Below, in pieces: positions 1 to 55,170 of a DNA stretch of 64,000 nucleotides. Each line of letters starts with the position of its first letter. Position 1 is the first letter of the stretch. The stretch is taken from assembly GCF_003790525.1 (NCBI RefSeq), contig NZ_CP033635.1. One strand, 5' to 3'. Both the position numbers and the translations under genes were made by a program. The DNA is from Escherichia coli (GTDB taxonomy: Bacteria > Pseudomonadota > Gammaproteobacteria > Enterobacterales > Enterobacteriaceae). The notes under the pieces were generated by a model that was not told the origin of the DNA, did no database searches, and was given only the letters and a program-made list of their open reading frames with translations.

Positions 1-715
1 GGCTAATTTGCGCCCCAGGCTGTACCGCGCGGCGGGAGACATAACCGGTCATCGGACTGACAATACGAGTACGCTCCAGCGCCAGCCAGGCGTTACGTAC
101 TTCGGTGGCAGCCTGTTGCACGGCAGGCTGATCTTCCAGTTTCGTCCCCAGAATCATCGCCTGATTTGCATTGTATTGTTGAATAGCGACGTCCAGTTGT
201 GCCTGGGCACTGGTAACGGCGTCGCGGGCGTGTTGCAGCTCTTCGCGACCAATCAGGTTGGCATTGCCCAGCGGCACACGGCGGTTGTAGTCGCTTTGTG
301 CTTTCGCGAGTGCGATTTTTTGCACCTCAATATTCGCCTGCAACTGTTTGCTGTTAATCATCAGCTGGTGGGTTTGGCGAACGCTGGAAGCCAGTGCAGT
401 TTTGGCTTTTTCAAACGCCTGGCGAGCATCTGTCGGGTCGAGAGTGACCAGCACGTCGCCTTCTTTTACAAAATCGGTGTTATCGGCCCAGACTTTCGTC
501 ACGCTGCCAGACACCTGAGACATAATTTGAATCTGATTCCCTGCCACGTATGCATCATCGGTTTCTTCGAAATGACGCAGTACTAAAAACCAATAAATCC
601 CTATCGCTACGGCAATAATTATAAAGAGCAAGGTGAGAAGGAGGAGCAGACGCTTACGTTTGCCGCTCTTCTTTACCGGTTGCTGCGGGGTTTGAGTCTC
701 CGCATTTGCGCTCAT
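1..715 (-). CDS. emrA: Multidrug efflux membrane fusion protein EmrA, N-terminal part (3' end runs off the window)
   Basis: Reverse-strand translation from ATG (complement of 713-715) reads MSANAETQTPQQPVKKSGKRKRLLLL...; the track's + strand ORF 8..586 is antisense to it. Confidence 0.9.
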   Translation of the reverse strand, partial: MSANAETQTPQQPVKKSGKRKRLLLLLTLLFIIIAVAIGIYWFLVLRHFEETDDAYVAGNQIQIMSQVSGSVTKVWADNTDFVKEGDVLVTLDPTDARQAFEKAKTALASSVRQTHQLMINSKQLQANIEVQKIALAKAQSDYNRRVPLGNANLIGREELQHARDAVTSAQAQLDVAIQQYNANQAMILGTKLEDQPAVQQAATEVRNAWLALERTRIVSPMTGYVSRRAVQPGAQIS

Positions 716-841
716 ATTGTTCTCCACGATCTTCTTAACTCATCGGCTGAGCCGACCTGCTTGCCAAAAAGGCCAGCATGTTGCGATGCTGGCCAGTCAT
801 TTTTTCTTTTATAAATCTGGATTTTTGAGCGAGATGACGCG

Positions 842-1372
842 TTAGCTCATCGCTTCGAGAACCACACCGTCTTGTTCCATCTGGTCGAGACGGGAGAGCA
901 ATTTGCGGGTGATTTGCTCGAGCTGATCTTTTTCTGTTGTGCTGAGCGCGGACCAGAGTTGATGCAGGCAGTTATGCTGCGGTGGTAAAACCTCGCGCAA
1001 AAACTCGTGACCTTTTTCCGTTAATTGCAGATGCAGGCAGCGGCGATCGTTATCGCTTTCACGACGTTCGATCCAACCGCGTTTTTCCAGTTCATCGGCA
1101 ATACGCGTCGCGTTGGTACGGGATGATCCAAGAGCACAACTCAATTCAGAAGGCTGAATACTGTGGTTTTCCTGAGACTCCAGCGTAATCAACGCCATAA
1201 ACAACGTCTCGTTAATCCCCTGAGCCTTCAGCATTTTATTGCGGTTTTCCAGCAGCTTGCTTTGCATATGCATGCAAAGACGGGTCAGAAGGATCTCCTG
1301 ATAAGGAAAATCTTCGTGGCGGCTGGCGCGAAATTTTAGCATTTGTTCAATGGGCGTAAACGAACTATCCAT
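842..1372 (-). CDS. mprA: MarR-family transcriptional repressor MprA (EmrR)
   Basis: 176-aa [25 protein letters not shown]...; immediately upstream of emrA on the same strand. Confidence 0.93.
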
Positions 1373-1462
1373 TTGGGTATGACCTCATTAATTTCAGCCG
1401 ATATAGTAACGACAGTGACAAATAAAGTAAATGTATTGTTTTAGAAAAATGATTCTTGTGGG

Positions 1463-1798
1463 TTATATAATCGCCATCACTTTCCAGGCTAGCCCATAGG
1501 CCAGCGCACTAAGCAGTGTTGGGATGATAATGCTGCGTGTTTTATAGAAACTGGCACCCAGTACCGCGAAGCCGACCAGCGTGGGCACGAAACGGCGTGT
1601 ATCGTGCATCACTTCTGGTGCGGTAGAGACAACCAGCAGAGCGCATATCGAGGCGATGCCAATGGTGTCGAGCAAAATGCCTATCGCGCCACGTTTGGTT
1701 GGGCGGGCATTACCCACACGCAGGCGCAGCGGCAGATAGCGGAAGCAATAATTCGCCGCGCCAACCAGTAACCCAAGCAGCAGAACCTCATAGCTCAT
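1463..1798 (-). CDS. ygaH: Branched-chain amino acid (L-valine) exporter small subunit YgaH
   Basis: 111-aa hydrophobic ORF overlapping the ygaZ stop; AzlD-like. Confidence 0.85.
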
Positions 1799-2525
1799 CG
1801 GGCGCTCCTTGCCAGAATGCCTGGATTAACGCAGTGAGGCAGCCACAGACAATGCCTGCCAGAATGGCGACGGGAATAGAAAATAGCGTTACGCCTGCAA
1901 GGGCACCAACTAACGCTGCGGTAACGCAAAGAGATTGTTTGCGCTGGAAAGAGGCGAGCAGGAAACTCATAAAGAGTGCCGGAAGCATAAAACCTAATGC
2001 TGCTTCAACGGCGGGATATCCTTGCAGCAAGCCGCTGCCGGAGAATGCCCCTATTACCGTACCAAATACCCACGATGACCATGAACTGAAGGCAATGCCG
2101 ATCATCCAGTTTTCGCTCCAGCGGCGATTATTGCGTACCAGTTTTGCGGTTGCGGCGGCAAAAACCTCATCCGTCAGGCCAAACGCCCACAGGGCGGTTT
2201 TCGATTTTTGCAGACGCTGAATAATACGGCTACGCAGTGACGGGCCATACAAAACATGGCGAACATCCATTGCCATGACGGTCAGTGCAGCAACCCACAA
2301 ACTACTCCCGGCTGCCAGCATCGCGGTAATGACGAACTGGCTCGCGCCTGCATAAATGATGCAGGAGAAAAAAACGCTTTCGAGAGGAGAGAATCCCAGA
2401 CGGGTCGCATTCAGACCGAACGCAAAGGCCACCGGAATATAACTAATAACAATCGGTAAACTGTCTTTGCATCCTTCCATGAAGGTCGCCGAACCAGGAG
2501 CAGGCTGTGGAGTAGGGCTTTCCAT
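1788..2525 (-). CDS. ygaZ: Branched-chain amino acid exporter large subunit YgaZ (AzlC family)
   Basis: 245-aa membrane ORF translationally coupled to ygaH. Confidence 0.85.
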
Positions 2526-3934: not shown

Positions 3935-4018
3935 GTAGGTATGATAAGACGCACCAGCGTCGCATCAGGCATTGTGTACAGAGCGGCGGATGAGGCAAAA
4001 ACGCCTTATCCGCCCGAA
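3935..4018. repeat. REP/BIME element cluster between ygaY and proX
   Basis: Sequence gtaggtatgataagacgcaccagcgtcgcatcaggc ... ggcggatgaggcaaaaacgccttatccgcccgaat matches the E. coli REP palindrome family. Confidence 0.7.
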
Positions 4019-34300: not shown

Positions 34301-35955
34301 TCGTCTATGCAGGTACGCTGGCGGATGCATCGGTCAGTGGCGCGACAGGAAGCCTGTCGTTAATGACGCCACGGGATAATGTTACGCCAGTTAAACTCGA
34401 AGGGGCGATCCGGATTACCGATAGCGCGACATTAACTATCGGAAATGGCGTCGATACGACGCTTACCGACCTGACGGCTGCCAGCCGGGGCAGTGTCTGG
34501 CTTAACAGCAATAATTCCTGTGCAGGTACCAGCAACTGCGAATATAGAGTAAACAGTTTGCTCCTCAACGACGGTGATGTTTATTTATCAGCACAAACAG
34601 CAGCGCCTGCCACAACTAACGGTATCTACAATACGCTGACAACCAGTGAACTTTCCGGCAGCGGTAATTTCTACCTGCATACCAACGTTGCAGGCTCCCG
34701 GGGCGATCAACTGGTCGTCAACAACAACGCCACTGGTAATTTTAAAATCTTTGTTCAGGATACCGGCGTCAGCCCTCAGTCTGACGACGCGATGACGCTG
34801 GTGAAAACAGGGGGAGGGGATGCTTCGTTTACGCTGGGTAATACCGGCGGTTTCGTTGATCTTGGGACCTATGAGTATGTCCTGAAAAGCGACGGCAACA
34901 GCAACTGGAACCTGACCAATGATGTCAAACCCAACCCGGACCCCAACCCAAATCCGAAGCCGGATCCAAAACCAGACCCAAAACCGGATCCGAAACCAGA
35001 CCCGACTCCCGATCCAACGCCGACACCCGTCCCGGAGAAACGCATCACGCCTTCTACGGCAGCCGTACTCAATATGGCAGCAACATTACCGTTGGTCTTT
35101 GATGCTGAGCTAAACAGTATTCGCGAGCGGTTGAACATAATGAAAGCGAGTCCACACAACAATAATGTCTGGGGGACGACGTATAACACCCGTAATAATG
35201 TCACCACCGATGCGGGTGCCGGGTTTGAGCAGACGCTGACCGGAATGACGGTGGGGATCGATAGCCGTAATGATATTCCTGAGGGGATTGCGACGCTGGG
35301 CGCTTTTATGGGTTATTCCCATTCACATATCGGTTTTGATCGTGGAGGACATGGCAGTGTGGGCAGTTATTCTCTGGGGGGCTATGCCAGCTGGGAACAT
35401 GAAAGTGGTTTCTATCTGGACGGTATCGTGAAGCTGAACCGCTTTGAAAGTAACGTAGCCGGTAAAATGAGCAGCGGTGGAGCCGCCAACGGCAGTTATC
35501 GCAGCAACGGGCTGGGCGGTCACATTGAAACCGGGATGCGATTTACCGATGGTAACTGGAACCTGACGCCGTATGCATCGTTAACGGGGTTCACCGCTGA
35601 TAACCCCGAATATCATTTATCCAATGGCATGGAATCGAAATCAGTCGATACCCGCAGTATATATCGTGAACTGGGCGCAACGCTGAGTTACAACATGCGT
35701 CTGGGGAACGGCATGGAAGTTGAGCCGTGGCTGAAGGCGGCTGTGCGCAAAGAATTTGTCGATGATAACCGGGTGAAAGTGAATAATGACGGTAATTTTG
35801 TCAATGATTTGTCGGGCAGACGTGGAATATACCAGGCAGGTATTAAAGCCTCATTCAGCAGTTCGTTAAGCGGGAATCTCGGGGTGGGGTATAGCCATGG
35901 TGCCGGTGTGGAATCCCCGTGGAACGCAGTGGCTGGTGTGAACTGGTCGTTCTGA
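31378..35955 (+). CDS. ypjA: AIDA-type autotransporter adhesin-like protein YpjA
   Basis: Signal peptide MKFMNRTSLHYCRRSVLSLWISALIYAPPGMA (alternative start 31387); long passenger with ~19-aa beta-helix repeats (GG.Q.V..GG.A..T.I); Pro-rich linker; C-terminal beta-barrel ending ...AGVNWSF. The track ORF starts at an upstream GTG (31258). Confidence 0.85.
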   Translation: MKFMNRTSLHYCRRSVLSLWISALIYAPPGMAAFTPDVIGVVNDETVDGSQKVDERGTTNNTHIINHGQQNVYGGISNESLIESGGYQDIGRHNNYVGQANNTTINGGRQTIHDGGISTGTIIESGNQDVYTGGISNGTTIKGGNSHISGGTANGTIIDGGSQRVTTQGHVDSTTINKSGSQDVVQGSLATNTTINGGRQYVEQSTVETTTIKNGGEQRVYESRALDTTIEGGTQSLNSNSTAKNTQIYSGGTQIVDYTSTSDVIEIYSGGVLDVRGGMATNVTQHDGAALKVTTYDLTVSGTNSEGAFSIHNNVADNVLLENGGHLDVYGSATRTIIKDKGTMSVLTNAKADATRIDNGGVMDVAGNATNTIINGGTQNINNHGIATGTNINSGTQNIKSGGKADTTNISSGSRQIVEKDGTATGSNISAGGSLIVYTGGIAHGVNQETGSALVANTGAGTDIEGYNKLSRFTIIGGEANYVVLENTGELTVVAKTSAKNTTIDAGGKLIVQKEAKTDSTRLNNGGVLEVQDGGEAKHVEQQSGGALIASTTSGTLIEGTNSYGDAFYIRNSEAKNVVLENAGSLTVVTGSRAVDTIINANGKMDVYGKDVGTVLNSAGTQTIYASATSEKANIKGGKQTVYGLATEANIESGEQIVDGGSTDKTHIKGGTQTVQNYGKAINTDIVSGLQQIMANGTAEGSIINGGSQVVNEGGLAENSVLNDGGTLDVREKGSATGIQQSSQGALVATTRATRVTGTRADGVAFSIEQGAANNILLTNGGVLTVESDTSSAKTQVNAGGREIVKTKATATGTTLTGGEQIVEGVANETTINDGGIQTVSANGEAVKTTINEGGTLTVNDNGKATDIIQNSGAALQTSTANGIEISGTHQYGTFSIAGNLATNALLENGGNLLVLAGTEARDSTVGKGGAMQNLGQDSATKVNSGGQYTLGRSKDEFQALARAEDLQVAGGTAIVYAGTLADASVSGATGSLSLMTPRDNVTPVKLEGAIRITDSATLTIGNGVDTTLTDLTAASRGSVWLNSNNSCAGTSNCEYRVNSLLLNDGDVYLSAQTAAPATTNGIYNTLTTSELSGSGNFYLHTNVAGSRGDQLVVNNNATGNFKIFVQDTGVSPQSDDAMTLVKTGGGDASFTLGNTGGFVDLGTYEYVLKSDGNSNWNLTNDVKPNPDPNPNPKPDPKPDPKPDPKPDPTPDPTPTPVPEKRITPSTAAVLNMAATLPLVFDAELNSIRERLNIMKASPHNNNVWGTTYNTRNNVTTDAGAGFEQTLTGMTVGIDSRNDIPEGIATLGAFMGYSHSHIGFDRGGHGSVGSYSLGGYASWEHESGFYLDGIVKLNRFESNVAGKMSSGGAANGSYRSNGLGGHIETGMRFTDGNWNLTPYASLTGFTADNPEYHLSNGMESKSVDTRSIYRELGATLSYNMRLGNGMEVEPWLKAAVRKEFVDDNRVKVNNDGNFVNDLSGRRGIYQAGIKASFSSSLSGNLGVGYSHGAGVESPWNAVAGVNWSF
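34930..35034 (+). repeat. Tandem Pro-rich (NP/KPDP/TP) linker repeat inside ypjA
   Basis: Encodes PNPDPNPNPKPDPKPDPKPDPKPDPTPDPTPTPVP from near-identical 12-nt units (ccg gat cca aaa / cca gac cca aaa). Confidence 0.85.
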
Positions 35956-35965
35956 CCATCAACGA

Positions 35966-35992
35966 AAAAGCCCACATCTGTGGGCTTTCATA
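35966..35992 (+). terminator. Putative ypjA terminator hairpin
   Basis: aaagcccaca-tctg-tgggcttt stem-loop 11 bp after the stop codon; the T-run is short. Confidence 0.45.
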
Positions 35993-36115
35993 TCACCAGG
36001 AGCCGCGGCTCCTTTGCGTATCCTTTTTTGTCTCCTCACCGTCTGGTCGGTGTCCTGCTGAGACTGCTAACTTCCTGTTTTTATTGGTGTTGTCCTTACA
36101 CCGTCCAATCATGAT

Positions 36116-36478
36116 TGGTGGAGCTGGCGGGAGTTGAACCCGCGTCCGAAATTCCTACATCCTCGGTACTACATGCTTAGTCAGTCTTTACATTCGCTTG
36201 CCAGCTGCGGACGGACACGCCACTAACAAACTAGCCTGATTAAGTTTTAACGCTTCAACCCCAGGCAGGGCTTCCACGCGATCTCTTTTGGGTTTGACCT
36301 CTCTTGATCCCCGTCCTAAGAGCGGAGGCTAGGGAGAGAGGGCTCTAAGCAGGTTATTAAGCTGCTAAAGCGTAGTTTTCGTCGTTTGCGACTATTTTTT
36401 GCGGCTTTTTACGAGGCCAACCGCCCCTCGGCATGCACCTTGGGTTTCGCAAATCCCGTCGAATCCAGAATCAGCCCC
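36116..36478 (-). ncRNA. ssrA: tmRNA (SsrA), 363 nt
   Basis: Reverse complement reads GGGGCTGATTCTGGATTCGACGGGATTTGCGAAACCC...GCGGGTTCAACTCCCGCCAGCTCCACCA; includes the tag reading frame region. Confidence 0.95.
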
Positions 36479-36692
36479 AATGTGTGACGGTAAGTATACC
36501 AGATTCATGAGTGCCATGACCAGCCTCAATGGCGTTATCATTAAAGATTTAGCACCCATGTAGCCTGATTTTTATTCGATTAAGCAATGGGATGGCAACA
36601 TTTGTGTCGGAAGTGATAGCCAATAAGATGTTCATTCGCGCCGCCGGAGAGGGAGGCGCGGTGAGGAACTGGTCAATAATTGCAGTGCAGGT

Positions 36693-37175
36693 TTAACGGT
36701 GGGCGTTTTTCATGATACGCGCTTTATCCACCTGCCATTCGCGTTCTTTGATATCTGAACGTTTATCATGCTGTTTCTTACCTTTGGCGACGCCGATTTT
36801 TACTTTGCACCAGGCATTTTTCCAGTACAGGGAGAGCGCCACTACGGTATAGCCTTCTCGATTGACGCGACCGTACAATGAGTCCAGTTCGCGCTGGTTG
36901 AGAAGTAACTTGCGGGTACGGGTAGGATCGCACACCACATGCGTGGAGGCCACAGCCATTGGCGTGATGTTAGCGCCAAACAGAAATGCCTCTCCGTCAC
37001 GCAGAAGGACGTAGCTGTCGCTGATATTGGCTTTTCCTGCGCGCAGGGATTTAACCTCCCAGCCTTGCAGGGCAAGTCCCGCCTCGAACTCTTCTTCGAT
37101 AAAGTATTCGTGACGGGCGCGCTTGTTAAGCGCGATGGTCGCTGAACCAGGTTTATGTGCTTTTTTCTTCGTCAT
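36693..37175 (-). CDS. smpB: SsrA-binding protein SmpB
   Basis: 160-aa [51 protein letters not shown]... Confidence 0.95.
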
Positions 37176-37306
37176 AAGCGTCGTGAATCATCGGTAATCT
37201 GAAATCGAAAACACCCCATATCAATCCTGCGGGGGACAAGGCTCTATCTTAGCATGAACCCGATGTTACCCAGCGCCGGGATAGCGTTTTTTTTACAGCA
37301 GGATAA

Positions 37307-37783
37307 ATGATATTATTTGTTGGATTTTTGTTGATGGAAATTGTTATGCCTCAGATTAGCCGGACCGCACTGGTACCCTACAGCGCGGAGCAAATGTATC
37401 AGTTAGTGAATGACGTTCAGTCTTATCCTCAGTTTTTGCCGGGTTGTACCGGAAGTCGGATTCTGGAGTCCACTCCTGGGCAGATGACTGCGGCGGTAAA
37501 TGTCTCTAAGGCTGGGATCAGCAAAACGTTTACTACCCGCAACCAGTTGACCAGTAACCAAAGTATTCTTATGAATCTGGTGGATGGGCCGTTCAAGAAA
37601 TTGATCGGTGGATGGAAGTTTACGCCGCTGAGCCAGGAGGCGTGTCGTATCGAGTTTCATCTCGACTTTGAGTTTACCAATAAGTTGATTGAACTCGCCT
37701 TTGGTCGCGTGTTTAAAGAGCTGGCGGCTAATATGGTCCAGGCTTTTACGGTTCGTGCGAAAGAGGTTTACAGTGCCAGGTAA
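37307..37783 (+). CDS. ratA: Ribosome association toxin RatA (PasT; START/polyketide cyclase-like)
   Basis: 158-aa [37 protein letters not shown]... (an internal start at MPQISRT is possible). Confidence 0.85.
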
Positions 37784-38063
37784 AATTGCCGTTGAGGTGG
37801 CTTATGCGCTACCTGAGAAGCAGTACCTGCAGCGTGTGACGCTGCAGGAGGGTGCGACGGTTGAAGAAGCTATTCGCGCCAGTGGCTTGCTGGAATTGCG
37901 TACCGATATCGATTTAACTAAAAACAAAGTCGGCATTTACAGCCGTCCGGCCAAACTGAGCGATACGGTGCATGATGGCGATCGGGTGGAGATTTATCGT
38001 CCTCTCATTGCCGATCCGAAAGAGCTTCGCAGGCAACGAGCAGAAAAATCAGCGAATAAATAA
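37773..38063 (+). CDS. ratB: RatB (YfjF/RnfH family)
   Basis: GTG-initiated [30 protein letters not shown]... overlapping the ratA stop; AAGAGG Shine-Dalgarno upstream. Confidence 0.8.
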
Positions 38064-38124
38064 CAGACAGAAAAAAGGTGCTCATTGAGCACCTTTTTTA
38101 ACCTCTTTGAGAGCAACTTTATTA

Positions 38125-38466
38125 TTAGTTACCACTCAGCGCAGGTTTGTTATCAATGTTGGCCAACACACCGCTACTGTTAAAGGTCAGCGTCAGCGTT
38201 TGCTGCGTTACACCTTCATGACCAGGTTGCTGGCGGAAGACATAGAACCAGGTATTCGTACCAAATGGATCGGACATCAGCGGTGTACCCAATGCGTACG
38301 CAACTTGTTGTTGCGTCATGCCAACACGTATTTTGGATACGTCGTTAGCGGTCAGATAATTCCCCTGGTTGATGTCAGGACGGTAAACCACTCGCTCCAG
38401 AGTGGAACAGCCTGCGGTCAACATCAATAGTACTGCTGCTGCAGCAGTCAGCGTTTTACAGCGCAT
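38125..38466 (-). CDS. bamE: Outer membrane protein assembly lipoprotein BamE (SmpA)
   Basis: 113-aa ORF with lipobox (LTAGCS). Confidence 0.93.
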
Positions 38467-38614
38467 AGTGATTTGATTCCTTTTCGGGCCCGAGCAGTAC
38501 GTGGCTCATCTGTAATATGCCGATGATAATAGACCTTTCATCACTTTAAAACCTTTTGCTTTCCGGTCCTACGGCGTTTTGCTGTTTACTCTGACCGTGA
38601 AGCAGGAAAAAAGT

Positions 38615-40276
38615 TTACGCCGCAAGCAGTTCTTTCGCATTCGCCAGTGTGTTACGTGTGACTTCACTGCCACCAAGCAGGCGCGCCAGCTCTTGTAACC
38701 GCGCTTTTTTGTCCAGCGACTCCATATGCGTTTCTGTCATCGCACCATCGGTTTCTTTGCTGACAAAATAGTGTTGATGACCACATCCCGCGACTTGTGG
38801 CAGGTGGGTAACACACATCACCTGAGTTGATTCGCCGAGTTGACGCAGCAGTTTGCCAACAACTGCCGCTGTTGGGCCGCTAATCCCTACATCCACTTCA
38901 TCAAAAATCAGTGCCGGGGTTTCCATTTTACGCGCCGTGATGACCTGAATTGCCAATGCGATGCGTGACAATTCACCACCGGATGCGACTTTGGCAATAG
39001 GCTGCATTGGCTGACCTGGGTTGGTGGTTACCCGAAATTCAATACGATCAGCGCCGTCAGCGCCCAGGTGATGCTCGTCAAATTTAACATCAATCGTAAA
39101 CTGCCCATGCGGCATAGAGAGTGCATGCATACTGTCGGTGATCAGCTGTGCAAGTTCTTCTGCATAGTGCTGGCGTTGCTGGTGTAATGCGTTCGCGGTT
39201 TCCAGTGCCTGCTGATGATGTTTCGTTACCGCCAGCGCGAGCGTTTCTTGTGAGTCGGCCTGATCGTCCAGTTGCTGCTGTTCTTCCAGTAGCGACTGGT
39301 AATACTGTGGCAATGCCTCAGGGCTGACGTGATGTTTACGTGCCAGCGAAATCTGTTTTGAGATGCGCTGTTCAAGTTCAAACAGTCGGTTAGGATCGAG
39401 GTCCAGACGATCGCAGTAGTGGCGCAGTTCATCGCTGGCTTCAGCAATCTGGATGGTAGCTTCTTCCAGCATATCAAGTACGCCGGACAGTTTGCTGTCC
39501 ATGCCAATCAATTCGCTCACCAGTTGTTTAGCCGTGTAAAGCTGACTTTGCAGGTTTGCGTCTTCACCGTCGGCCATTAATGCCAATGCATTCTGGCTGG
39601 TGGTCAGCAATTGACCGCTGTTCGCCAGACGTTTGTACTCTTCGTCGATTTGCTCAAACTCTCCGGGCTGCGGATTAAATTCGTTAAGTTCTTTTAATTG
39701 GTATTGCAGCAGTTCTGCACGGGCGGCGCGTTCCTGACTTAACTGTTGATGATGCGCGAGGTCACGGCAGCTTTGATGCCACAACTGATAACGTGCGGTC
39801 ATTTCCTGGAGTAGAGAGGTTTCATTGGCATAGCCATCAAGCAGGAATTTTTGGTGCTCGGGTTTGGTGAGTAACTGATGAGCGTGCTGACCATGGATCT
39901 GAATCAGCAACTGACCCAGTTCGCGCAGTTGTGAAAGAGGAACCGCTGTACCGTTGATAAAACCACGGGAGCGACCATCGCTGCTGATTACGCGACGAAG
40001 CAAACATTCATGCCCGTCTTCAAGCTGGTTTTCTTCCAGCCAGCGCAGGGCCGCTGGCGTATCTTTCAGAGAAAAACGGGCGCACAGGTCAGCGCGAGCA
40101 GCGCCGGTACGCACCATGTCGGCTTCAGCGCGACCACCGAGACAAAGACCGAGGGCATCTATTGCAATAGATTTACCCGCGCCGGTCTCGCCAGTTATTA
40201 CGGTCATGCCGCTATGAAAATCAATCTCAAGCTCACGAACGATAGCAAAGTTGCTGATGGTCAGTTGTGCCAACAT
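38615..40276 (-). CDS. recN: DNA repair protein RecN (SMC-like ATPase)
   Basis: 553-aa ORF with Walker A (GETGAGKS) and coiled-coil. Confidence 0.95.
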
Positions 40277-40361
40277 AGTTGTTTTCCTGTATGAAAAACC
40301 ATTACTGTTATTGTGTACAGTATAAACTGGTTTTATATACAGTAAAGAGGCTGGCGTGAAA

Positions 40362-41240
40362 TTAGAATAATTTTTTTGACCAGCCGAGCTTGGTGCTTAA
40401 TGTATTGAAATAACTGTAATCTTTCGGATGAATCAGATTCAGATGGTAATCACAGCGACGAATCAGGACATCTTCACCTTCCTGAATCGGCAGTGCTATC
40501 TGGCTGTCGCAACTGATTTCCAGGTCGTTACGGCGATGCGAAAAACGCAGACGGATCGTGCTGCTGCTGTTTATGACCAGTGGTCGTGCTGACAACGTAT
40601 GCGGGAACATGGGCACCAGGGTAATCGCATCCAGAGAGGGTGTGAGAATAGGACCGCCCGCAGAGAGGGAATAGGCGGTGGAGCCTGTTGGCGTCGAAAT
40701 AATCAGTCCATCGGAACGCTGAGAAAACGCAAAGATCTCGTCGATATACACTTCGAACTCAATCATATGCGCCACTTTGCCAGGATGAAGTACCACTTCG
40801 TTAATCGCGGTGCTGATGCGTTTCTGGCAATCTTGCTGACAAACTTGCGCTTCCAGCAAAAAACGTTTCTCGCTGATGTAGTGGCCTTCCAGCACATCGG
40901 CTAATTGTTGCTGGGCGTTATCGGGGTCAAGGTCAGTCAGGAAACCCAGGTTGCCACGGTTGATTCCAATAACTTTAATATCGTAACGGGCGAGTGTGCG
41001 CGCCGCGCCCAGCATATTACCGTCGCCACCAACAACTACCGCGAGATCTGCCAGTTGCCCAATCTCCGCGAGCGTGCCAGTTTTCACATTCTTCAGTTGC
41101 AGTTCGTGAGCGATTTGTTGCTCAACGATGACCTCGTAACCTTTTGCGCACAGCCAGCGGTAGAGCATTTCATGTGTTGTCAGTGCAGTGGGGTGCCGTG
41201 GGTGTCCCACAATGCCAATACACTTGAAATGATTATTCAT
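40362..41240 (-). CDS. nadK: NAD kinase
   Basis: 292-aa ORF with GGDGN motif. Confidence 0.95.
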
Positions 41241-41329
41241 TTTTCCGAGGTCCTTGTTGCGAAGATTGATGACAATGTGAGTGCTTCCCTTGAAACCCTG
41301 AAACTGATCCCCATAATAAGCGAAGTTAG

Positions 41330-41953
<624 letters not shown>

Positions 41954-41962
41954 ATATCTGAT

Positions 41963-41990
41963 GGCCGACGCGAAGTCGGCCATTTTTTTA
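41963..41990 (+). terminator. grpE intrinsic terminator
   Basis: ggccgac-gcgaag-tcggcc hairpin followed by TTTTTTT. Confidence 0.8.
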
Positions 41991-42629
41991 GCTTAAAAAA
42001 TCCTGTACTTCCAGCCACGGCGTGTTGAAATCATCTATTTTTTTATATTCGTTCATTGGCAGAACGACCACGTTATAGGTGTCAGATCCTTCATTCAGAT
42101 CAAAAATCTGAAAGCCCCTTTTATTGAGTTCGGTTTGGATGCGTTCAAAGATTTCGTCAAGGTAACGGTCTCCGGCTTCACAGACATCGGAGATTTCATC
42201 CTCTTGGGTTATTTCGACAAGAAGACTCCTTAATTCCTCAGAAGCTGTCAGGTTTTTTGTGAGCTCATAAAAGCGATCTGCAGCAAAATTAGCCAGCTCA
42301 CCTTCTTCATCTTCACCTTTCCAGTCAACGAGTTGAATTAGTCCTTCACCGCGCAGAACCTGTAAAAATGCCTGCGCCAGGTCATGATTTCCGAGATCGC
42401 CTCCACTGCAATCGAGAACGTCTTGTAATCCATATTCGTCTTCATCTTCGTCTTCAAAGATTTCAGGTTGCGTCGAAAGTTGAGAGAAAATAGTGGGCCA
42501 TAAGGTTGGGGTGTGCTGTAAAAAAACGCTGGCGACGACGTTGAGATCGTCTGCAAAATCCTTATCCCATTCAATTAAATAATCTTCTGACATAACATCA
42601 ATATCCTTTCCGAATGTTTGAAAAGACAT
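41988..42629 (-). CDS. Very acidic hypothetical protein (orphan between grpE and yfjD)
   Basis: 213-aa ORF, visibly AT-rich, many Asp/Glu (e.g. EDEDEDEYGLQDV, DWKGEDEEGEL); no recognisable motif; start may be the downstream Met (MSEDYL). Lies between the yfjD terminator and the grpE terminator. Confidence 0.6.
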   Translation of the reverse strand: MSFQTFGKDIDVMSEDYLIEWDKDFADDLNVVASVFLQHTPTLWPTIFSQLSTQPEIFEDEDEDEYGLQDVLDCSGGDLGNHDLAQAFLQVLRGEGLIQLVDWKGEDEEGELANFAADRFYELTKNLTASEELRSLLVEITQEDEISDVCEAGDRYLDEIFERIQTELNKRGFQIFDLNEGSDTYNVVVLPMNEYKKIDDFNTPWLEVQDFLS

Positions 42630-42682
42630 TATTACATTGCTAAGTAAATGACAGGAATTGATGGAATCCTAAAAGACGGCGA

Positions 42683-42710
42683 TAAAAAAAAAGGCGAACC
42701 GGAGTTCGCC
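42683..42710 (-). terminator. yfjD intrinsic terminator
   Basis: On the - strand: ggcgaac-tccg-gttcgcc followed by a 9-T run, directly after the yfjD stop. Confidence 0.8.
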
Positions 42711-42716
42711 ATTGCG

Positions 42717-43979
42717 TTACTCCGCCACGCTCTCGCGTAGCGGTTTCACAGGAAAAACTTTTACCTGCTTAATCATATTGTCCTGAACGTCGAGAATATC
42801 AATATCGTACTCGCCAATACGCACGCGGGTGCCTGCTACCGGGATCTCCTCCAGCGCTTCCAGAATGACGCCGTTAACAGTACGAGCATCATCTTCCGGT
42901 AGATGCCAGTTAAAGGCTTTGTTAATTTCTCGCACGTTGGCAGTGCCATCAATAATCACCGAACCGTCGTTTTGTGGCGTAACTTCTTCGGCAAGTGTTG
43001 GCGACATCGACGTGGTGAAATCGCCGACAATCTCTTCCAGAATATCTTCAACCGTCACCAGCCCCTGAATGTCTCCATACTCGTTGACGACCAGGCCGAC
43101 TTTCTTTTTGTTGCGCTGAAACTTCACCAACTGCGTGCTGAGCGGCGTACCTTCCGGGACAAAATAGATCTCGTCCGCGGCGCGTAGCATGGTTTCTTTG
43201 GTGAACTCTTTTTTCTCCGACATGAGTCGCCAGGCTTCACGCACACGCAGCATACTGATGGCGTCGTCCAGCGAATCACGGTAGAGCACGATGCGCCCGT
43301 GAGGTGAGTGGGAGAGTTGGCGCAGAATCGATTTCCAGTCATCGTTGATATCAATACCGATAATTTCACTGCGCGGCACCATGATGTCATCAACGGTCAT
43401 TTTTTCCAGATCGAGCACCGACAGCAGCATATCCTGATTGCGACGGGAAATTTGTGAGCGCGATTCGTGCACGATAGTGCGCAACTCTTCTTTGCTCAAA
43501 GAGCCGCTAACCACGATATCGGTTTTGATACCCATCATGCGCATCAGCATACGGGTGATAGCATTCAGCAACCAGACCAGCGGCATCATCAAAATTTGCA
43601 GCGGAGCCAGCAGAAAACTACTCGGATAAGCGACTTTTTCCGGGTACAGCGCGGCAATGGTTTTCGGCAATACCTCAGCAAAAACCAGCACGACAAAAGT
43701 CAGCACACCAGTCGCAATTGCCACGCCCGCATCGCCGTACAAACGCATCCCAACAATAGTGCCTAGCGCGGAGGCAAGAATATTGACCAGGTTATTGCCG
43801 ATTAACACCAGGCTAATCAGGCGGTCTGGCTTACGCAGCAATTTTTCGACGCGTTTGGCCGAGCGATTACCCTGTTTCGCCATATGTCGCAGACGATAGC
43901 GGTTGAGGGTCATCATTCCGGTTTCGGACCCGGAAAAATAGGCTGAAATGACCACCATGATGATCAGAATAATGATCAA
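42717..43979 (-). CDS. yfjD: CNNM/CorC-family membrane protein YfjD (DUF21 + CBS pair + CorC_HlyC)
   Basis: 420-aa ORF MIIILIIMVVISAYFSGSETGMMTLNRYRLRHMAK... Confidence 0.9.
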   Translation of the reverse strand: MIIILIIMVVISAYFSGSETGMMTLNRYRLRHMAKQGNRSAKRVEKLLRKPDRLISLVLIGNNLVNILASALGTIVGMRLYGDAGVAIATGVLTFVVLVFAEVLPKTIAALYPEKVAYPSSFLLAPLQILMMPLVWLLNAITRMLMRMMGIKTDIVVSGSLSKEELRTIVHESRSQISRRNQDMLLSVLDLEKMTVDDIMVPRSEIIGIDINDDWKSILRQLSHSPHGRIVLYRDSLDDAISMLRVREAWRLMSEKKEFTKETMLRAADEIYFVPEGTPLSTQLVKFQRNKKKVGLVVNEYGDIQGLVTVEDILEEIVGDFTTSMSPTLAEEVTPQNDGSVIIDGTANVREINKAFNWHLPEDDARTVNGVILEALEEIPVAGTRVRIGEYDIDILDVQDNMIKQVKVFPVKPLRESVAE

Positions 43980-44023
43980 CGTAGTAGTAGAAATGTGTTC
44001 CAGGGGAAACTCCTTTTCTGGGT

Positions 44024-44815
44024 TTAGCTGATTAACTGCTGGACAATTCGGCTGCCGAAGTAGGCCAGTGTCAGAATGACTGCACCCGCAACGTTAAACC
44101 AGACGACGCGGCGTCCACGCCATCCTTCATGATAATGTCCCCACAGCAGCACAATATAGACAAACCACGCCACGATAGAGAGCACGGCCTTGTCGATATT
44201 TTCCATGCTAAATAAGTTGTGCATGTAGAACAGGCCAGTGCAAAGCGTGAGCGTTAGCAGCACCACGCCAATCTGCGTGATGTGGAACATTTTACGCTCG
44301 ATACTCATCAATGGCGGCATTTCCTGGTTAAACGCCAGCTTCTTGTTCTTCAGTTGGTAATCAATCCACGCCAGTTGCAGCGCGTACAGGGCGGCGATAA
44401 TCAGCGTGGCATAGGAAAAGAGCGATAAGCCAATGTGCACCAGCATCCCAGGCGTTGCTTCCAGATGGGTGATGTATTCATTGGGCATGAAGGTCGCCAG
44501 CGCCAGGTTGATAAGCGCAAAGGCATAGACAATGGGTAGCAGCAACCAGCCACGATTGCGAGAAGCCACAATGGTCATTACCGTACAGATCATCAAACTG
44601 ACCAATGAACCAACGTTCAGCAGGCTGAGGTTTTGTCCGCTATCACCGTCGGGCAGGATGCGGGCTTCCAGAGCGATTGCGTGGCAGACCAGCGCAATGA
44701 CCGCAGAAATAATAGCCATGCGCCGCCAGCCGCCGTTTTTTTGCAGCAGACCGGGAACAATCAGCGCAAGACTGACGGAGTAGGCGACAAGCGCGAGCAG
44801 AGCAAAAACGGGCAT
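44024..44815 (-). CDS. ypjD: Cytochrome c assembly-like inner membrane protein YpjD
   Basis: Hydrophobic ORF starting MPVFALLALVAYSVSLALIV...; track ORF over-extended upstream. Confidence 0.85.
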   Translation of the reverse strand: MPVFALLALVAYSVSLALIVPGLLQKNGGWRRMAIISAVIALVCHAIALEARILPDGDSGQNLSLLNVGSLVSLMICTVMTIVASRNRGWLLLPIVYAFALINLALATFMPNEYITHLEATPGMLVHIGLSLFSYATLIIAALYALQLAWIDYQLKNKKLAFNQEMPPLMSIERKMFHITQIGVVLLTLTLCTGLFYMHNLFSMENIDKAVLSIVAWFVYIVLLWGHYHEGWRGRRVVWFNVAGAVILTLAYFGSRIVQQLIS

Positions 44816-44981
44816 AGTAATGTCGACAGTTTGAGCAATAAGAAAGAGAAGCAGTATAGCGTCAGGTGAACGCTGCTCCAACCGTTGCATAACAACAAAG
44901 ACGCCTTCATGTTATACTGCGGCAAAATACTGATGATGTGTCGCGATTGCGGCCAACCGTTTCCACCCCAGGCGAGAGACA

Positions 44982-46343
44982 ATGTTTGATAATTTAACCG
45001 ATCGTTTGTCGCGCACGCTGCGCAATATCAGTGGCCGTGGACGCCTCACTGAAGACAACGTAAAAGATACGCTGCGCGAAGTGCGCATGGCGCTGCTGGA
45101 GGCGGACGTCGCTCTGCCGGTAGTGCGTGAGTTTATCAATCGCGTAAAAGAGAAAGCGGTTGGTCATGAAGTTAATAAGAGCCTGACGCCGGGGCAGGAG
45201 TTCGTCAAAATCGTCCGTAACGAACTGGTTGCGGCGATGGGCGAAGAGAACCAGACCCTGAATCTGGCTGCGCAACCGCCAGCGGTGGTACTGATGGCGG
45301 GCCTGCAAGGTGCCGGTAAAACAACCAGCGTGGGCAAGCTCGGTAAGTTCCTGCGCGAGAAGCACAAGAAAAAAGTGTTGGTGGTTTCTGCCGACGTTTA
45401 TCGTCCGGCGGCAATCAAACAGCTGGAGACGCTGGCAGAGCAGGTGGGCGTTGATTTCTTCCCTTCTGATGTTGGTCAGAAGCCGGTAGATATCGTTAAC
45501 GCGGCGCTGAAAGAAGCCAAACTGAAATTCTACGACGTGCTGCTGGTGGATACCGCCGGTCGTCTGCACGTTGACGAAGCGATGATGGACGAGATCAAAC
45601 AAGTCCATGCGTCGATTAATCCGGTTGAAACCCTGTTTGTGGTTGACGCCATGACCGGTCAGGATGCGGCCAATACGGCAAAAGCATTTAATGAAGCGTT
45701 ATCGCTTACCGGCGTAGTGTTGACCAAAGTGGACGGCGATGCCCGCGGCGGTGCGGCGCTGTCTATTCGTCACATCACTGGCAAACCGATCAAGTTCCTC
45801 GGTGTTGGCGAGAAAACTGAGGCGCTGGAGCCGTTCCATCCGGACCGCATCGCGTCGCGCATTCTCGGCATGGGCGACGTACTGTCACTGATCGAAGATA
45901 TTGAAAGCAAAGTTGACCGCGCGCAGGCAGAGAAATTAGCCAGCAAGCTGAAAAAAGGCGACGGCTTCGATCTCAACGATTTTCTTGAGCAACTGCGCCA
46001 GATGAAAAATATGGGCGGCATGGCCAGCCTGATGGGCAAACTGCCGGGCATGGGGCAGATCCCGGATAACGTCAAGTCGCAGATGGACGATAAAGTGCTG
46101 GTGCGTATGGAAGCCATCATCAACTCGATGACGATGAAAGAGCGCGCTAAGCCAGAAATCATCAAAGGTTCGCGTAAACGCCGTATCGCTGCCGGTTGCG
46201 GTATGCAGGTGCAGGACGTTAACCGTCTTCTGAAACAGTTCGACGACATGCAGCGCATGATGAAGAAAATGAAGAAGGGCGGAATGGCAAAGATGATGAG
46301 AAGCATGAAAGGGATGATGCCGCCGGGATTTCCTGGTCGCTAA
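44982..46343 (+). CDS. ffh: Signal recognition particle protein Ffh
   Basis: 453-aa ORF with GTPase motifs (GLQGAGKTT, DTAGR) and Met-rich C-terminal M domain. Confidence 0.96.
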   Translation: MFDNLTDRLSRTLRNISGRGRLTEDNVKDTLREVRMALLEADVALPVVREFINRVKEKAVGHEVNKSLTPGQEFVKIVRNELVAAMGEENQTLNLAAQPPAVVLMAGLQGAGKTTSVGKLGKFLREKHKKKVLVVSADVYRPAAIKQLETLAEQVGVDFFPSDVGQKPVDIVNAALKEAKLKFYDVLLVDTAGRLHVDEAMMDEIKQVHASINPVETLFVVDAMTGQDAANTAKAFNEALSLTGVVLTKVDGDARGGAALSIRHITGKPIKFLGVGEKTEALEPFHPDRIASRILGMGDVLSLIEDIESKVDRAQAEKLASKLKKGDGFDLNDFLEQLRQMKNMGGMASLMGKLPGMGQIPDNVKSQMDDKVLVRMEAIINSMTMKERAKPEIIKGSRKRRIAAGCGMQVQDVNRLLKQFDDMQRMMKKMKKGGMAKMMRSMKGMMPPGFPGR

Positions 46344-46401
46344 ATGACCTTATGCGACAGAGTTATTAACTGCTGATTGCATTTTCTCCAGAAATCAGTA
46401 A

Positions 46402-46728
<327 letters not shown>

Positions 46729-46746
46729 TCTGTCACGGTGGTCATG

Positions 46747-47295
46747 ATGAGCAAACAACTCACCGCGCAAGCACCTGTTGATCCCATCGTTTTGGGAAAA
46801 ATGGGTTCGTCTTACGGTATTCGTGGGTGGCTCAGAGTGTTTTCTTCCACCGAAGACGCCGAAAGCATTTTTGACTATCAGCCCTGGTTTATCCAGAAGG
46901 CGGGTCAGTGGCAGCAAGTCCAGCTGGAAAGCTGGAAGCACCACAATCAGGACATGATCATCAAGCTGAAAGGCGTTGACGATCGTGATGCGGCGAACCT
47001 GCTGACGAATTGTGAAATTGTCGTGGATTCATCGCAGTTGCCTCAGCTTGAAGAGGGTGACTACTACTGGAAAGACCTGATGGGCTGCCAGGTAGTAACC
47101 ACTGAAGGCTACGATCTCGGTAAAGTCGTCGATATGATGGAAACCGGATCTAATGACGTTCTCGTCATTAAGGCAAACCTGAAAGATGCGTTTGGTATCA
47201 AGGAACGTCTCGTACCGTTCCTCGATGGGCAGGTTATCAAGAAAGTCGATCTCACTACTCGTTCAATCGAAGTAGATTGGGATCCTGGTTTTTAA
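46747..47295 (+). CDS. rimM: Ribosome maturation factor RimM
   Basis: [34 protein letters not shown]... Confidence 0.93.
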
Positions 47296-47325
47296 ACCAC
47301 CGGATAAACGGTAAAAGACGGCGCT

Positions 47326-48093
47326 ATGTGGATTGGCATAATTAGCCTGTTTCCTGAAATGTTCCGCGCAATTACCGATTACGGGGTAACTGGCCGGGCA
47401 GTTAAAAATGGCCTGCTGAGCATCCAGAGCTGGAGTCCTCGCGACTTCACGCATGACCGGCACCGTACCGTGGACGATCGTCCTTACGGCGGCGGACCGG
47501 GGATGTTAATGATGGTGCAACCCTTGCGGGACGCCATTCATGCAGCAAAAGCCGCGGCGGGTGAAGGCGCAAAGGTGATTTATCTGTCACCACAGGGACG
47601 CAAGCTTGATCAAGCGGGCGTCAGCGAGCTGGCAACGAATCAAAAATTGATTCTGGTGTGCGGTCGCTACGAAGGTATAGATGAGCGCGTGATCCAAACC
47701 GAAATTGATGAAGAATGGTCAATCGGCGATTACGTTCTCAGTGGTGGTGAGTTACCAGCAATGACGCTGATTGACTCCGTTTCCCGGTTTATTCCGGGAG
47801 TACTGGGACATGAGGCCTCGGCAACGGAAGATTCCTTTGCTGAAGGATTGCTGGATTGCCCGCACTATACGCGGCCTGAGGTGTTAGAAGGGATGGAAGT
47901 TCCGCCAGTGTTACTGTCGGGCAACCATGCCGAGATACGTCGCTGGCGTTTGAAACAGTCGCTGGGCCGTACCTGGCTTAGAAGACCTGAACTTCTGGAA
48001 AACCTGGCTCTGACTGAAGAGCAAGCAAGGTTGCTGGCGGAGTTCAAAACGGAACACGCACAACAGCAACATAAACATGATGGGATGGCGTAA
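47326..48093 (+). CDS. trmD: tRNA (guanine37-N1)-methyltransferase TrmD
   Basis: 255-aa [32 protein letters not shown]... Confidence 0.96.
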
Positions 48094-48131
48094 GCCCCCG
48101 AGATATCAGTTTACCCAGGATAAGAGATTAA

Positions 48132-48482
<351 letters not shown>

Positions 48483-48511
48483 GATTTCGCTTAAGCGACA
48501 TCCTGTTAAGA

Positions 48512-48542
48512 AGGGCTGGCCAATTGGCTGGCCCTTTTTTTA
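48512..48542 (+). terminator. rplS operon intrinsic terminator
   Basis: Palindrome gggctggccaattggctggccc followed by TTTTTTT. Confidence 0.8.
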
Positions 48543-48558
48543 TCTATCAAAATTGCGT

Positions 48559-49041
48559 TTACGGTGCACTAATCACCACAGCGACGCGGCGGTTCTCGGC
48601 GCGGCCCTGGGCGGTCTTGTTACTGGCTATGGGATATTTTTTTCCTAAACCCTGTGTGGTGAGATTGCTGCGCGGAATTTGTCCACCCATAGCCCATGCA
48701 TCGGCCACGACATTCGCCCGTTTTAATGATAAGACTTCGTTGTAACTGTCTTCACCATAGTTGTCGGTGTGTCCATCCATACGGGCATGTGTTAGCCCTG
48801 TCGAGGCCAATTTGGCTGCCATGGTTTGGATTTGTTGCTGGCTTTCCGGGAGCAATTTGTAGTCATTTTTTGCGAACAGAATGGCATCTGATAAGCCCAG
48901 CGACCAGTCGCCGGCGGATTCAGTAAATCCATAAGATTGCATAGCGGCGACTTGCTCAGGAGTAAACTTTCCCTGAGGGGACTGGCAGCCAGTAAGTATT
49001 AGCGAGGTGAAAATCAGGGGTGCTACCAGGTGCTTTATCAT
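48559..49041 (-). CDS. yfiB: OmpA-family outer membrane lipoprotein YfiB
   Basis: 160-aa ORF with lipobox (LTGCQS) and OmpA-like C-terminus. Confidence 0.9.
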   Translation of the reverse strand: MIKHLVAPLIFTSLILTGCQSPQGKFTPEQVAAMQSYGFTESAGDWSLGLSDAILFAKNDYKLLPESQQQIQTMAAKLASTGLTHARMDGHTDNYGEDSYNEVLSLKRANVVADAWAMGGQIPRSNLTTQGLGKKYPIASNKTAQGRAENRRVAVVISAP

Positions 49042-54942: not shown

Positions 54943-54975
54943 ATAAAAAAGGCCCCCCGATTTGGGAGGCCTTAT
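54943..54975 (-). terminator. pheA attenuator terminator
   Basis: On the - strand: aggcctccc-aaatc-gggggggcct hairpin followed by a T-run, between pheL and pheA. Confidence 0.85.
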
Positions 54976-55019
54976 TGTTCGTCTTCGCATTCTGTTTCAC
55001 ACGACGAAACGCCTCCCAT

Positions 55020-55067
55020 TCAGGGGAAGGTAAAAAAGAATGCGAAGAAAAACGGTGTGTGTTTCAT
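55020..55067 (-). CDS. pheL: pheA leader peptide PheL (Phe-rich)
   Basis: - strand atgaaacacacaccgtttttcttcgcattcttttttaccttcccctga = MKHTPFFFAFFFTFP; 7 Phe codons. Confidence 0.9.
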   Translation of the reverse strand: MKHTPFFFAFFFTFP

Positions 55068-55170
55068 GTTTGTTTCCTTAAGTGACTTTAGTACAGTACC
55101 CGTACTGTTTTCACGCTGTCAACAAAAAACGCGCCCGAAGGCGCGTTGGCGATACACTCAATATAAAGGA

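Follow-up and report, generated by a model that had tools for sequence, protein, structure and literature searches.

Is the 3′ end of the tmRNA gene ssrA vacant in this Escherichia coli strain, and what stands there in place of a prophage? I analyzed a 64,000-nucleotide stretch of contig NZ_CP033635.1, hereafter called the window. ARAGORN places a 363-nt tmRNA gene with the tag ANDENYALAA at 36116..36478 on the minus strand, and Rfam RF00023 covers this gene from end to end with the same coordinates (295.8 bits, model positions 1-374). The gene is full-length, and its residue T357, at window position 36122, pairs with G3 as a G.U pair of the acceptor stem. On one flank lies the core gene smpB (36693..37175, minus strand, from the ORF list and annotations). 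On the other lies ypjA (ehaD), an intact autotransporter adhesin gene convergent with ssrA (31387..35955, plus strand), which is in a region 94.6% identical to the K-12 ypjA region. The genome of strain SC516 matches window 23601..48800 with 99.99% identity over 25 kb, and its RefSeq annotation calls the same ORF adhesin-like autotransporter YpjA/EhaD. In the ORF list, the plus-strand ORF of ypjA ends at 35955 with its stop codon included, and the ssrA-ypjA gap (35956..36115) is exactly 160 bp. The sequence-only reading had put the end of the tmRNA at 36116 and the end of ypjA 160 bp away, with no integrase or phage genes between them. ARAGORN, Rfam, and the ORF list agree with both figures, and blastn, tblastn, and a scan for the core pattern found no integrase or phage gene in the gap. 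A 72-aa plus-strand ORF (35919..36137) overlaps ssrA and was regarded as spurious.

Other features of the window were noted in passing. A 29-nt perfect-looking palindrome, found as a blast self-match, lies in the yfjF/bamE intergenic region (38071..38099) and is probably a bidirectional terminator. Further Rfam matches are naRNA4, the Phe leader, and RyfD (3938..4015, 54943..55068, and 58374..58512) and the start of an rRNA operon with 16S, tRNA-Glu, StyR-44, and the 5′ part of 23S (61510..64000). These are ordinary E. coli features.

The locus was compared with that of K-12. In the MG1655 annotation, the gene order is smpB, ssrA, CP4-57, psaA, 160 bp, and the 3′ end of ypjA. The 22-kb CP4-57 prophage (2755941..2777971) starts within the 3′ end of ssrA and stops just short of psaA, which is a 14-nt pseudogene, and intA opens the prophage about 200 bp after ssrA. 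The annotation thus agrees with the earlier claim that CP4-57 sits at the 3′ end of ssrA in K-12. By blast, nucleotides 1..1957 of the K-12 sequence (L001) correspond to window 38071..36115 with 98.8% identity, and nucleotides 23973..30387 correspond to window 36130..29742 with 94.6% identity. For the prophage between them (L001 1958..23972), blastn gives no match in any part of the 64-kb window. The only overlap of the two blocks is a 15-nt core, CCGCCAGCTCCACCA, at window 36116..36130. In a three-way alignment, the window agrees with K-12 attL as far as the CCA that closes ssrA; from the core on, it agrees with K-12 attR. Aligning the K-12 junction had been proposed as the way to locate the att core, and it places the core in the last 15 nt of ssrA on the minus strand.

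The core has one exact copy in the window; the other pattern matches carry three mismatches and lie in unrelated places. No second core copy, integrase, or element gene was found in the 64-kb window by blastn, pattern scan, and tblastn, the last with 23 CP4-57 proteins and the integrase of lambdoid phage LLS as queries. The only trace of a recombinase nearby is a pinH-like serine recombinase fragment at about 30812..30979, approximately 5 kb away. The finding named beforehand as counting against an empty site, either a remnant of an att site or a piece of an integrase gene inside 35956..36115, was looked for by blast, pattern scan, and tblastn and was not found. The 3′ end of the target gene is intact and contains the core, and the flanks are collinear with the left side of K-12 attL and the right side of K-12 attR. 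A single core copy that joins these two flanks is what an unoccupied attB for the CP4-57/IntA type should look like, so the idea of an empty attachment site has held up. The last ~39 nt of ssrA (36116..36154, minus strand), which are duplicated in LLS as a "tmRNA pseudogene"/attP according to its annotation and alignment, form a second integration sublocation, which is also unoccupied. I put the probability at roughly 90% that the 3′ end of ssrA is an unoccupied attB on an intact, functional-looking tmRNA gene, followed by its own 154-nt structured trailer with an intrinsic terminator and then by the convergent ypjA. The site would stay open to IntA-type islands, which would recombine within the final ~15 nt of ssrA, and would still be available to lambdoid (LLS-type) or other elements that cross over about 21-43 nt from the ssrA end.

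What is the 160-bp spacer? Alignments, RNAalifold, and a fold z-score delimit a conserved structured trailer of about 154 nt, here called X, right after the CCA end of the tmRNA (35962..36115, minus strand). It contains hairpin H1 with the loop AAGGACA (36086..36102), hairpin H2 (36030..36064), and hairpin H3 with the stem GGAGCC/GGCUCC (35999..36012), all on the minus strand. A predicted intrinsic terminator of the ssrA unit follows on the same strand (35964..35987), 9 nt from the ypjA stop codon. It reads AAAGCCCAC-AGAU-GUGGGCUUU and then UU. The terminator is recognized from its sequence, its minimum-free-energy fold, and its conservation: a GCCCAC/GUGGGC stem is followed by U5, with a compensatory GC/AU pair among the copies. 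A scan for consensus terminators (35700..36800) did not list this minus-strand terminator, perhaps because the A-U extension of the stem uses up the T run. The only site flagged by the scan is on the plus strand (36004..36018) inside X, and this site might serve ypjA.

With 33 diverse X copies, RNAalifold gives four hairpin regions with 28 pairs, seven of them compensatory; examples are AU:14/GC:13 and CG:13/AU:12/UA:8 in H1 and the GC/AU pair in the terminator. In the consensus structure, 97.5% of the cells are paired, as against 38-47% when the partners are slid. The covariation score was reached by none of 500 shuffles, and the seven compensatory pairs by 2 of 500. Several pairs vary via G.U, which is a pair on the ssrA-sense strand alone. 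The fold z-score of the window copy is −3.2. No Rfam 15 family matched X at gathering or permissive thresholds. The sub-threshold matches in the ssrA sense were tmRNA_permuted (20.7 bits against a gathering threshold of 47), which extends in from ssrA, and STnc350 (13.1 bits, E = 8.8). On this modeled structure, X is predicted to be a conserved structured RNA module without an Rfam family.

Two other readings of X were tried and set aside. As for coding, the window copy has a 42-codon ORF whose ATG lies just after CCA, and most other alleles stop after four codons. As for a CsrA sponge, X has seven GGA motifs, six of them conserved, against 4.7 +/- 1.4 in dinucleotide shuffles (p ~0.1), which is a weak lead.

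Transcription of ssrA would run through X to the terminator at 35964..35987, and processing would then make the CCA end and release a structured trailer of about 150 nt. Does the trailer have a function of its own? It is a tentative proposal, and I consider it somewhat doubtful, that X is a 3′ external trailer of pre-tmRNA acting in 3′ processing or stability, as a stable small RNA, or, in phages, as a sib-like element downstream of int. If so, this would explain why unrelated phages and islands that target ssrA in Enterobacteriaceae carry their own copy at attP and restore it, and why CP4-57 replaces it; lysogeny at ssrA would then alter the 3′-end biology of tmRNA, differently for each element. 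No description of X or of a conserved ssrA trailer was found in the literature searched, and an earlier description elsewhere is possible.

Is X limited to E. coli? In a host scan with one genome per species, the central block of X was found in 17 Enterobacterales species. A full ssrA lies directly upstream of X in E. albertii, E. whittamii, two Klebsiella, one Citrobacter, and Enterobacter hormaechei, as well as in Lelliottia, Pluralibacter, Trabulsiella, and Pseudenterobacter. In all copies, X begins immediately behind CCA and stops at the terminator's U run, past which the sequences are unrelated. The window copy is 84.9-90.1% identical to the Klebsiella, Enterobacter, Citrobacter, and Lelliottia copies compared, whereas the smpB region is 75-81% identical in the alignable loci of Klebsiella, Enterobacter, and Pseudenterobacter. 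In Klebsiella indica (L018 3165..6175), ssrA and X are followed by a 401-aa ORF and a 419-aa ORF, the latter of which looks by eye like a tyrosine (P4-type) integrase. The sequence just past X in K. indica is shared with Enterobacter hormaechei and Pseudenterobacter (L026, L039), which suggests an intergeneric island carrying X at its ssrA-proximal end.

X is also carried by phages. A scan of viral contigs found X in at least 120 stretches. Among the matches listed, X is preceded by a full ssrA or by ssrA fragments of ~15, 21-28, 30-35, or 39-43 nt; an additional class of 124-125 nt corresponds to the complete ssrA bearing an indel of 1 nt. X stands beside an ssrA fragment in the phage genomes LLS, phiNP, and PhiR12_4, while phage Ayreon and a 43.7-kb circular element of CT01 have kept X but no usable ssrA core. 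The CT01 element ("plasmid unnamed3", L006) is phage-like and has a dusA-type integrase along with a degenerate ssrA core and X. Its restriction-modification (R-M) cassette next to X is almost identical to that of the ssrA prophage of YF-1, which suggests that the integration module of the CT01 element was swapped.

In LLS, a spacer homologous to that of the window comes after the last ~39 nt of ssrA (90% across window 35965..36154). A DNA invertase and cargo genes are located just ahead of this spacer. The LLS paper reports a 29-bp identity with ssrA only and leaves the homology of ~150 nt in X unmentioned (PMC12315714). YF-1 has a tandem array at ssrA (L005 14350..18630, L004 11065..15518). 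The X next to ssrA is followed there by the R-M cassette and lambdoid tail genes, which form one end of a lambdoid prophage; at the other end of the array, a displaced ssrA piece of 33 nt is found some 205 bp upstream of a gene for an intA-like integrase. To judge from this arrangement, the ssrA-proximal X of YF-1 came with the phage. In YF-1, ypjA is replaced by an IS3 and a hypothetical gene. In the IMG/VR contig 2563366953_000006 (L075, L076), two direct copies of X flank a 42.4-kb prophage: a phage-type X follows the full ssrA, and an Escherichia-type X follows a 30-nt ssrA fragment. The presence of two types on one contig indicates that LLS-like phages arrive with an X of their own and displace the resident one to attR. 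The second copy on this contig is cut inside the terminator by a sequence that also follows a truncated X of E. albertii (L012). CP4-57 puts a trailer and terminator of its own in the place of X, as seen in the attL sequence, while many other elements restore a copy of X.

What lies on the far side of the spacer? A variable islet, ygaQ-ileY-ypjCB(pseudo)-pinH′-ypjA, occupies 25248..35955, as delimited by blast breakpoints, annotations, composition, and boundary sequences. As far as about 32000 its GC content is 33-43%, compared with 50-58% for the flanks, and it holds the serine recombinase remnant (pinH′). The ileY gene for tRNA-Ile(CAU) is at 28181..28256 on the plus strand by annotation; ARAGORN calls it tRNA-Met from the CAT anticodon. 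The ygaQ-like ORF of the alpha-amylase family is intact in the window (750 aa, 25372..27624, minus strand), as in SC516, while ygaQ is an annotated pseudogene in K-12 and is frameshifted in YF-1. In strain FDAARGOS_1261, which I take to be a B2-like E. coli, the order is glaH, about 320 bp, spacer, and ssrA, and ygaQ, ileY, ypjCB, pinH, and ypjA are absent from the locus. E. whittamii has the same glaH-spacer-ssrA arrangement, and its filler shares long stretches with that of FDAARGOS_1261; the islet is thus replaced by about 320-430 bp of unrelated filler in these two. In every comparison, among them those with YF-1, phage LLS, and the B2-like strain, similarity to the window breaks off at 35964/35965. 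Since the islet is absent from the B2-like E. coli strain and from E. whittamii and glaH stands beside the spacer there, the islet is a derived insertion between glaH and the spacer. It was probably acquired horizontally.

The spacer joins ypjA in the same way in both K-12 attR and the window, and this junction recurs at the far ends of several further ssrA prophages, whose ssrA remnants are 35 to 41 nt long. Because K-12 attR and the window share this junction, it is older than the CP4-57 insertion in the K-12 lineage, as the sequence-only reading had proposed. That reading had also called the site ancestral. The word suits the ssrA-spacer junction; it does not suit the ileY/ypjA islet, which the B2-like E. 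coli strain and E. whittamii lack. The glaH-spacer-ssrA arrangement looks like the oldest. The low-GC ygaQ-ileY-ypjA islet would have come next, followed by the insertion of CP4-57 or LLS-like elements between ssrA and the spacer.

Is the spacer of the window resident or supplied by a phage? The window X is 95.4% identical to that of K-12 attR, 97.4% to the attR-flank class (L048), 88.8% to that of LLS, and 86.2% to that of CT01. Its H1 has the Escherichia-specific stem GGUGU/ACACC, which is common to E. albertii, E. whittamii, the B2-like E. coli strain, and K-12 attR. The terminator stem GCCCAC/GUGGGC of the window is joined to ypjA on the attR side in occupied genomes, and the copies of LLS and CT01 have different terminator stems. 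From these sequence features I conclude that the window X is best taken as the resident allele at an unoccupied site. The window X and the X of the B2-like E. coli strain differ by about 10%, as much as the copies of different genera. This divergence within one species makes it likely that, in general, X alleles are exchanged via mobile elements.

A different history would be that the 3′ end of ssrA and the spacer came from a mobile element, such as an LLS-like lysogen, and that the ypjA islet with its pinH remnant and ileY is the decayed right arm. LLS, phiNP, and more than 100 viral contigs do carry the spacer beside an ssrA fragment, and YF-1 has both the spacer followed by R-M and tail genes and the displaced 33-nt fragment beside the intA-like gene. 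The invertase and cargo genes before the spacer in LLS resemble the order pinH′-ypjA-spacer, and the islet is low in GC and missing from the B2-like E. coli strain and from E. whittamii. However, the spacer of the window is followed by ypjA, with no displaced ssrA fragment or second spacer at the glaH end of the islet or elsewhere in the window, and its H1 stem and attR-type terminator are not those of the phage type. Moreover, tblastn with the CP4-57 proteins and the LLS integrase revealed no phage structural or integrase homologue in the window. This history is improbable.

Was the site empty from the start, or was it emptied? Excision of CP4-57 in K-12 occurs at measurable rates and produces an ssrA lacking T357 (delta-T357), a loss reported by the authors to inactivate tmRNA (PMC10107115). 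In the alignment, the core of K-12 attR reads CCGCCAGC-CCACCA and is one T short. It is very unlikely that the window carries a CP4-57 excision scar, formed when IntA/AlpA-mediated loss of a K-12-like prophage joined ssrA to the attR flank: the junction is exactly what site-specific excision would yield and such excision is known from K-12, but the window retains T357 and is therefore not a K-12-type excision product, and the ypjA-ssrA configuration is found in 25% of genomes against 13% for the K-12-like ssrA-intA junction. If an element with perfect att repeats were excised precisely, the exact window sequence would be restored, and past occupation by such an element is possible. Since an element of this kind leaves no scar, a site that was never occupied and one that was precisely vacated look alike in general.

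How common is this state? Junctions were counted among 5426 complete E. coli genomes, and contiguity of ypjA-spacer-ssrA-smpB was scored when at least 80% of the 1201-bp query was covered. This arrangement is contiguous in 1385 of the 5426 genomes, and the spacer is contiguous with the 3′ end of ssrA in 2529. The K-12-like ssrA-intA junction is present in 694 (~13%). The state of the window is therefore ordinary, occurring in a quarter to half of sequenced E. coli, and is already known in kind; an empty ssrA is the commonest single configuration at a well-known integration hot spot. As originally stated, the finding matters little, as CP4-57 is at ssrA in only ~13% of complete E. coli genomes. 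The window is of use as a clean reference attB for the ssrA locus, with the full core including T357. The empty att site being known in kind, X is the sole part with some potential for novelty.

One of the closest known systems is the CP4-57 attB/attR of K-12, which shares with the window the gene, the 15-nt core, and the right-hand flank, made up of 160 bp and the ypjA end. Removal of the 22-kb element from the K-12 locus gives the arrangement of the window. K-12 has the element and a direct repeat, whereas the window has neither. The K-12 attR copy (psaA) lacks one T, whereas the core of the window is complete. In K-12, ssrA has a trailer and terminator supplied by the prophage, while ssrA of the window has its own spacer. 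Unlike LLS, the window lacks phage genes on the far side of the spacer. Two RNA systems offer analogies for X, with no sequence relationship expected in either case. The sib/tI element of phage lambda is a retroregulator, and X of LLS likewise lies past attP on the downstream side of int, in sense orientation, which makes it an analogy of position. 3′ETS-leuZ is a 3′ external transcribed spacer RNA, and X of the host is likewise a structured 3′ trailer that would be released on RNA maturation. Finally, tRNA and tmRNA genes are said to be hot spots for islands with tyrosine integrases in "Traffic at the tmRNA gene" by K. P. Williams (J. Bacteriol. 2003), which reportedly also describes tandem arrays and several crossover sublocations within ssrA. 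Several classes of elements use the same locus here as well, YF-1 shows a tandem array, and the window shows this hot spot without an occupant.
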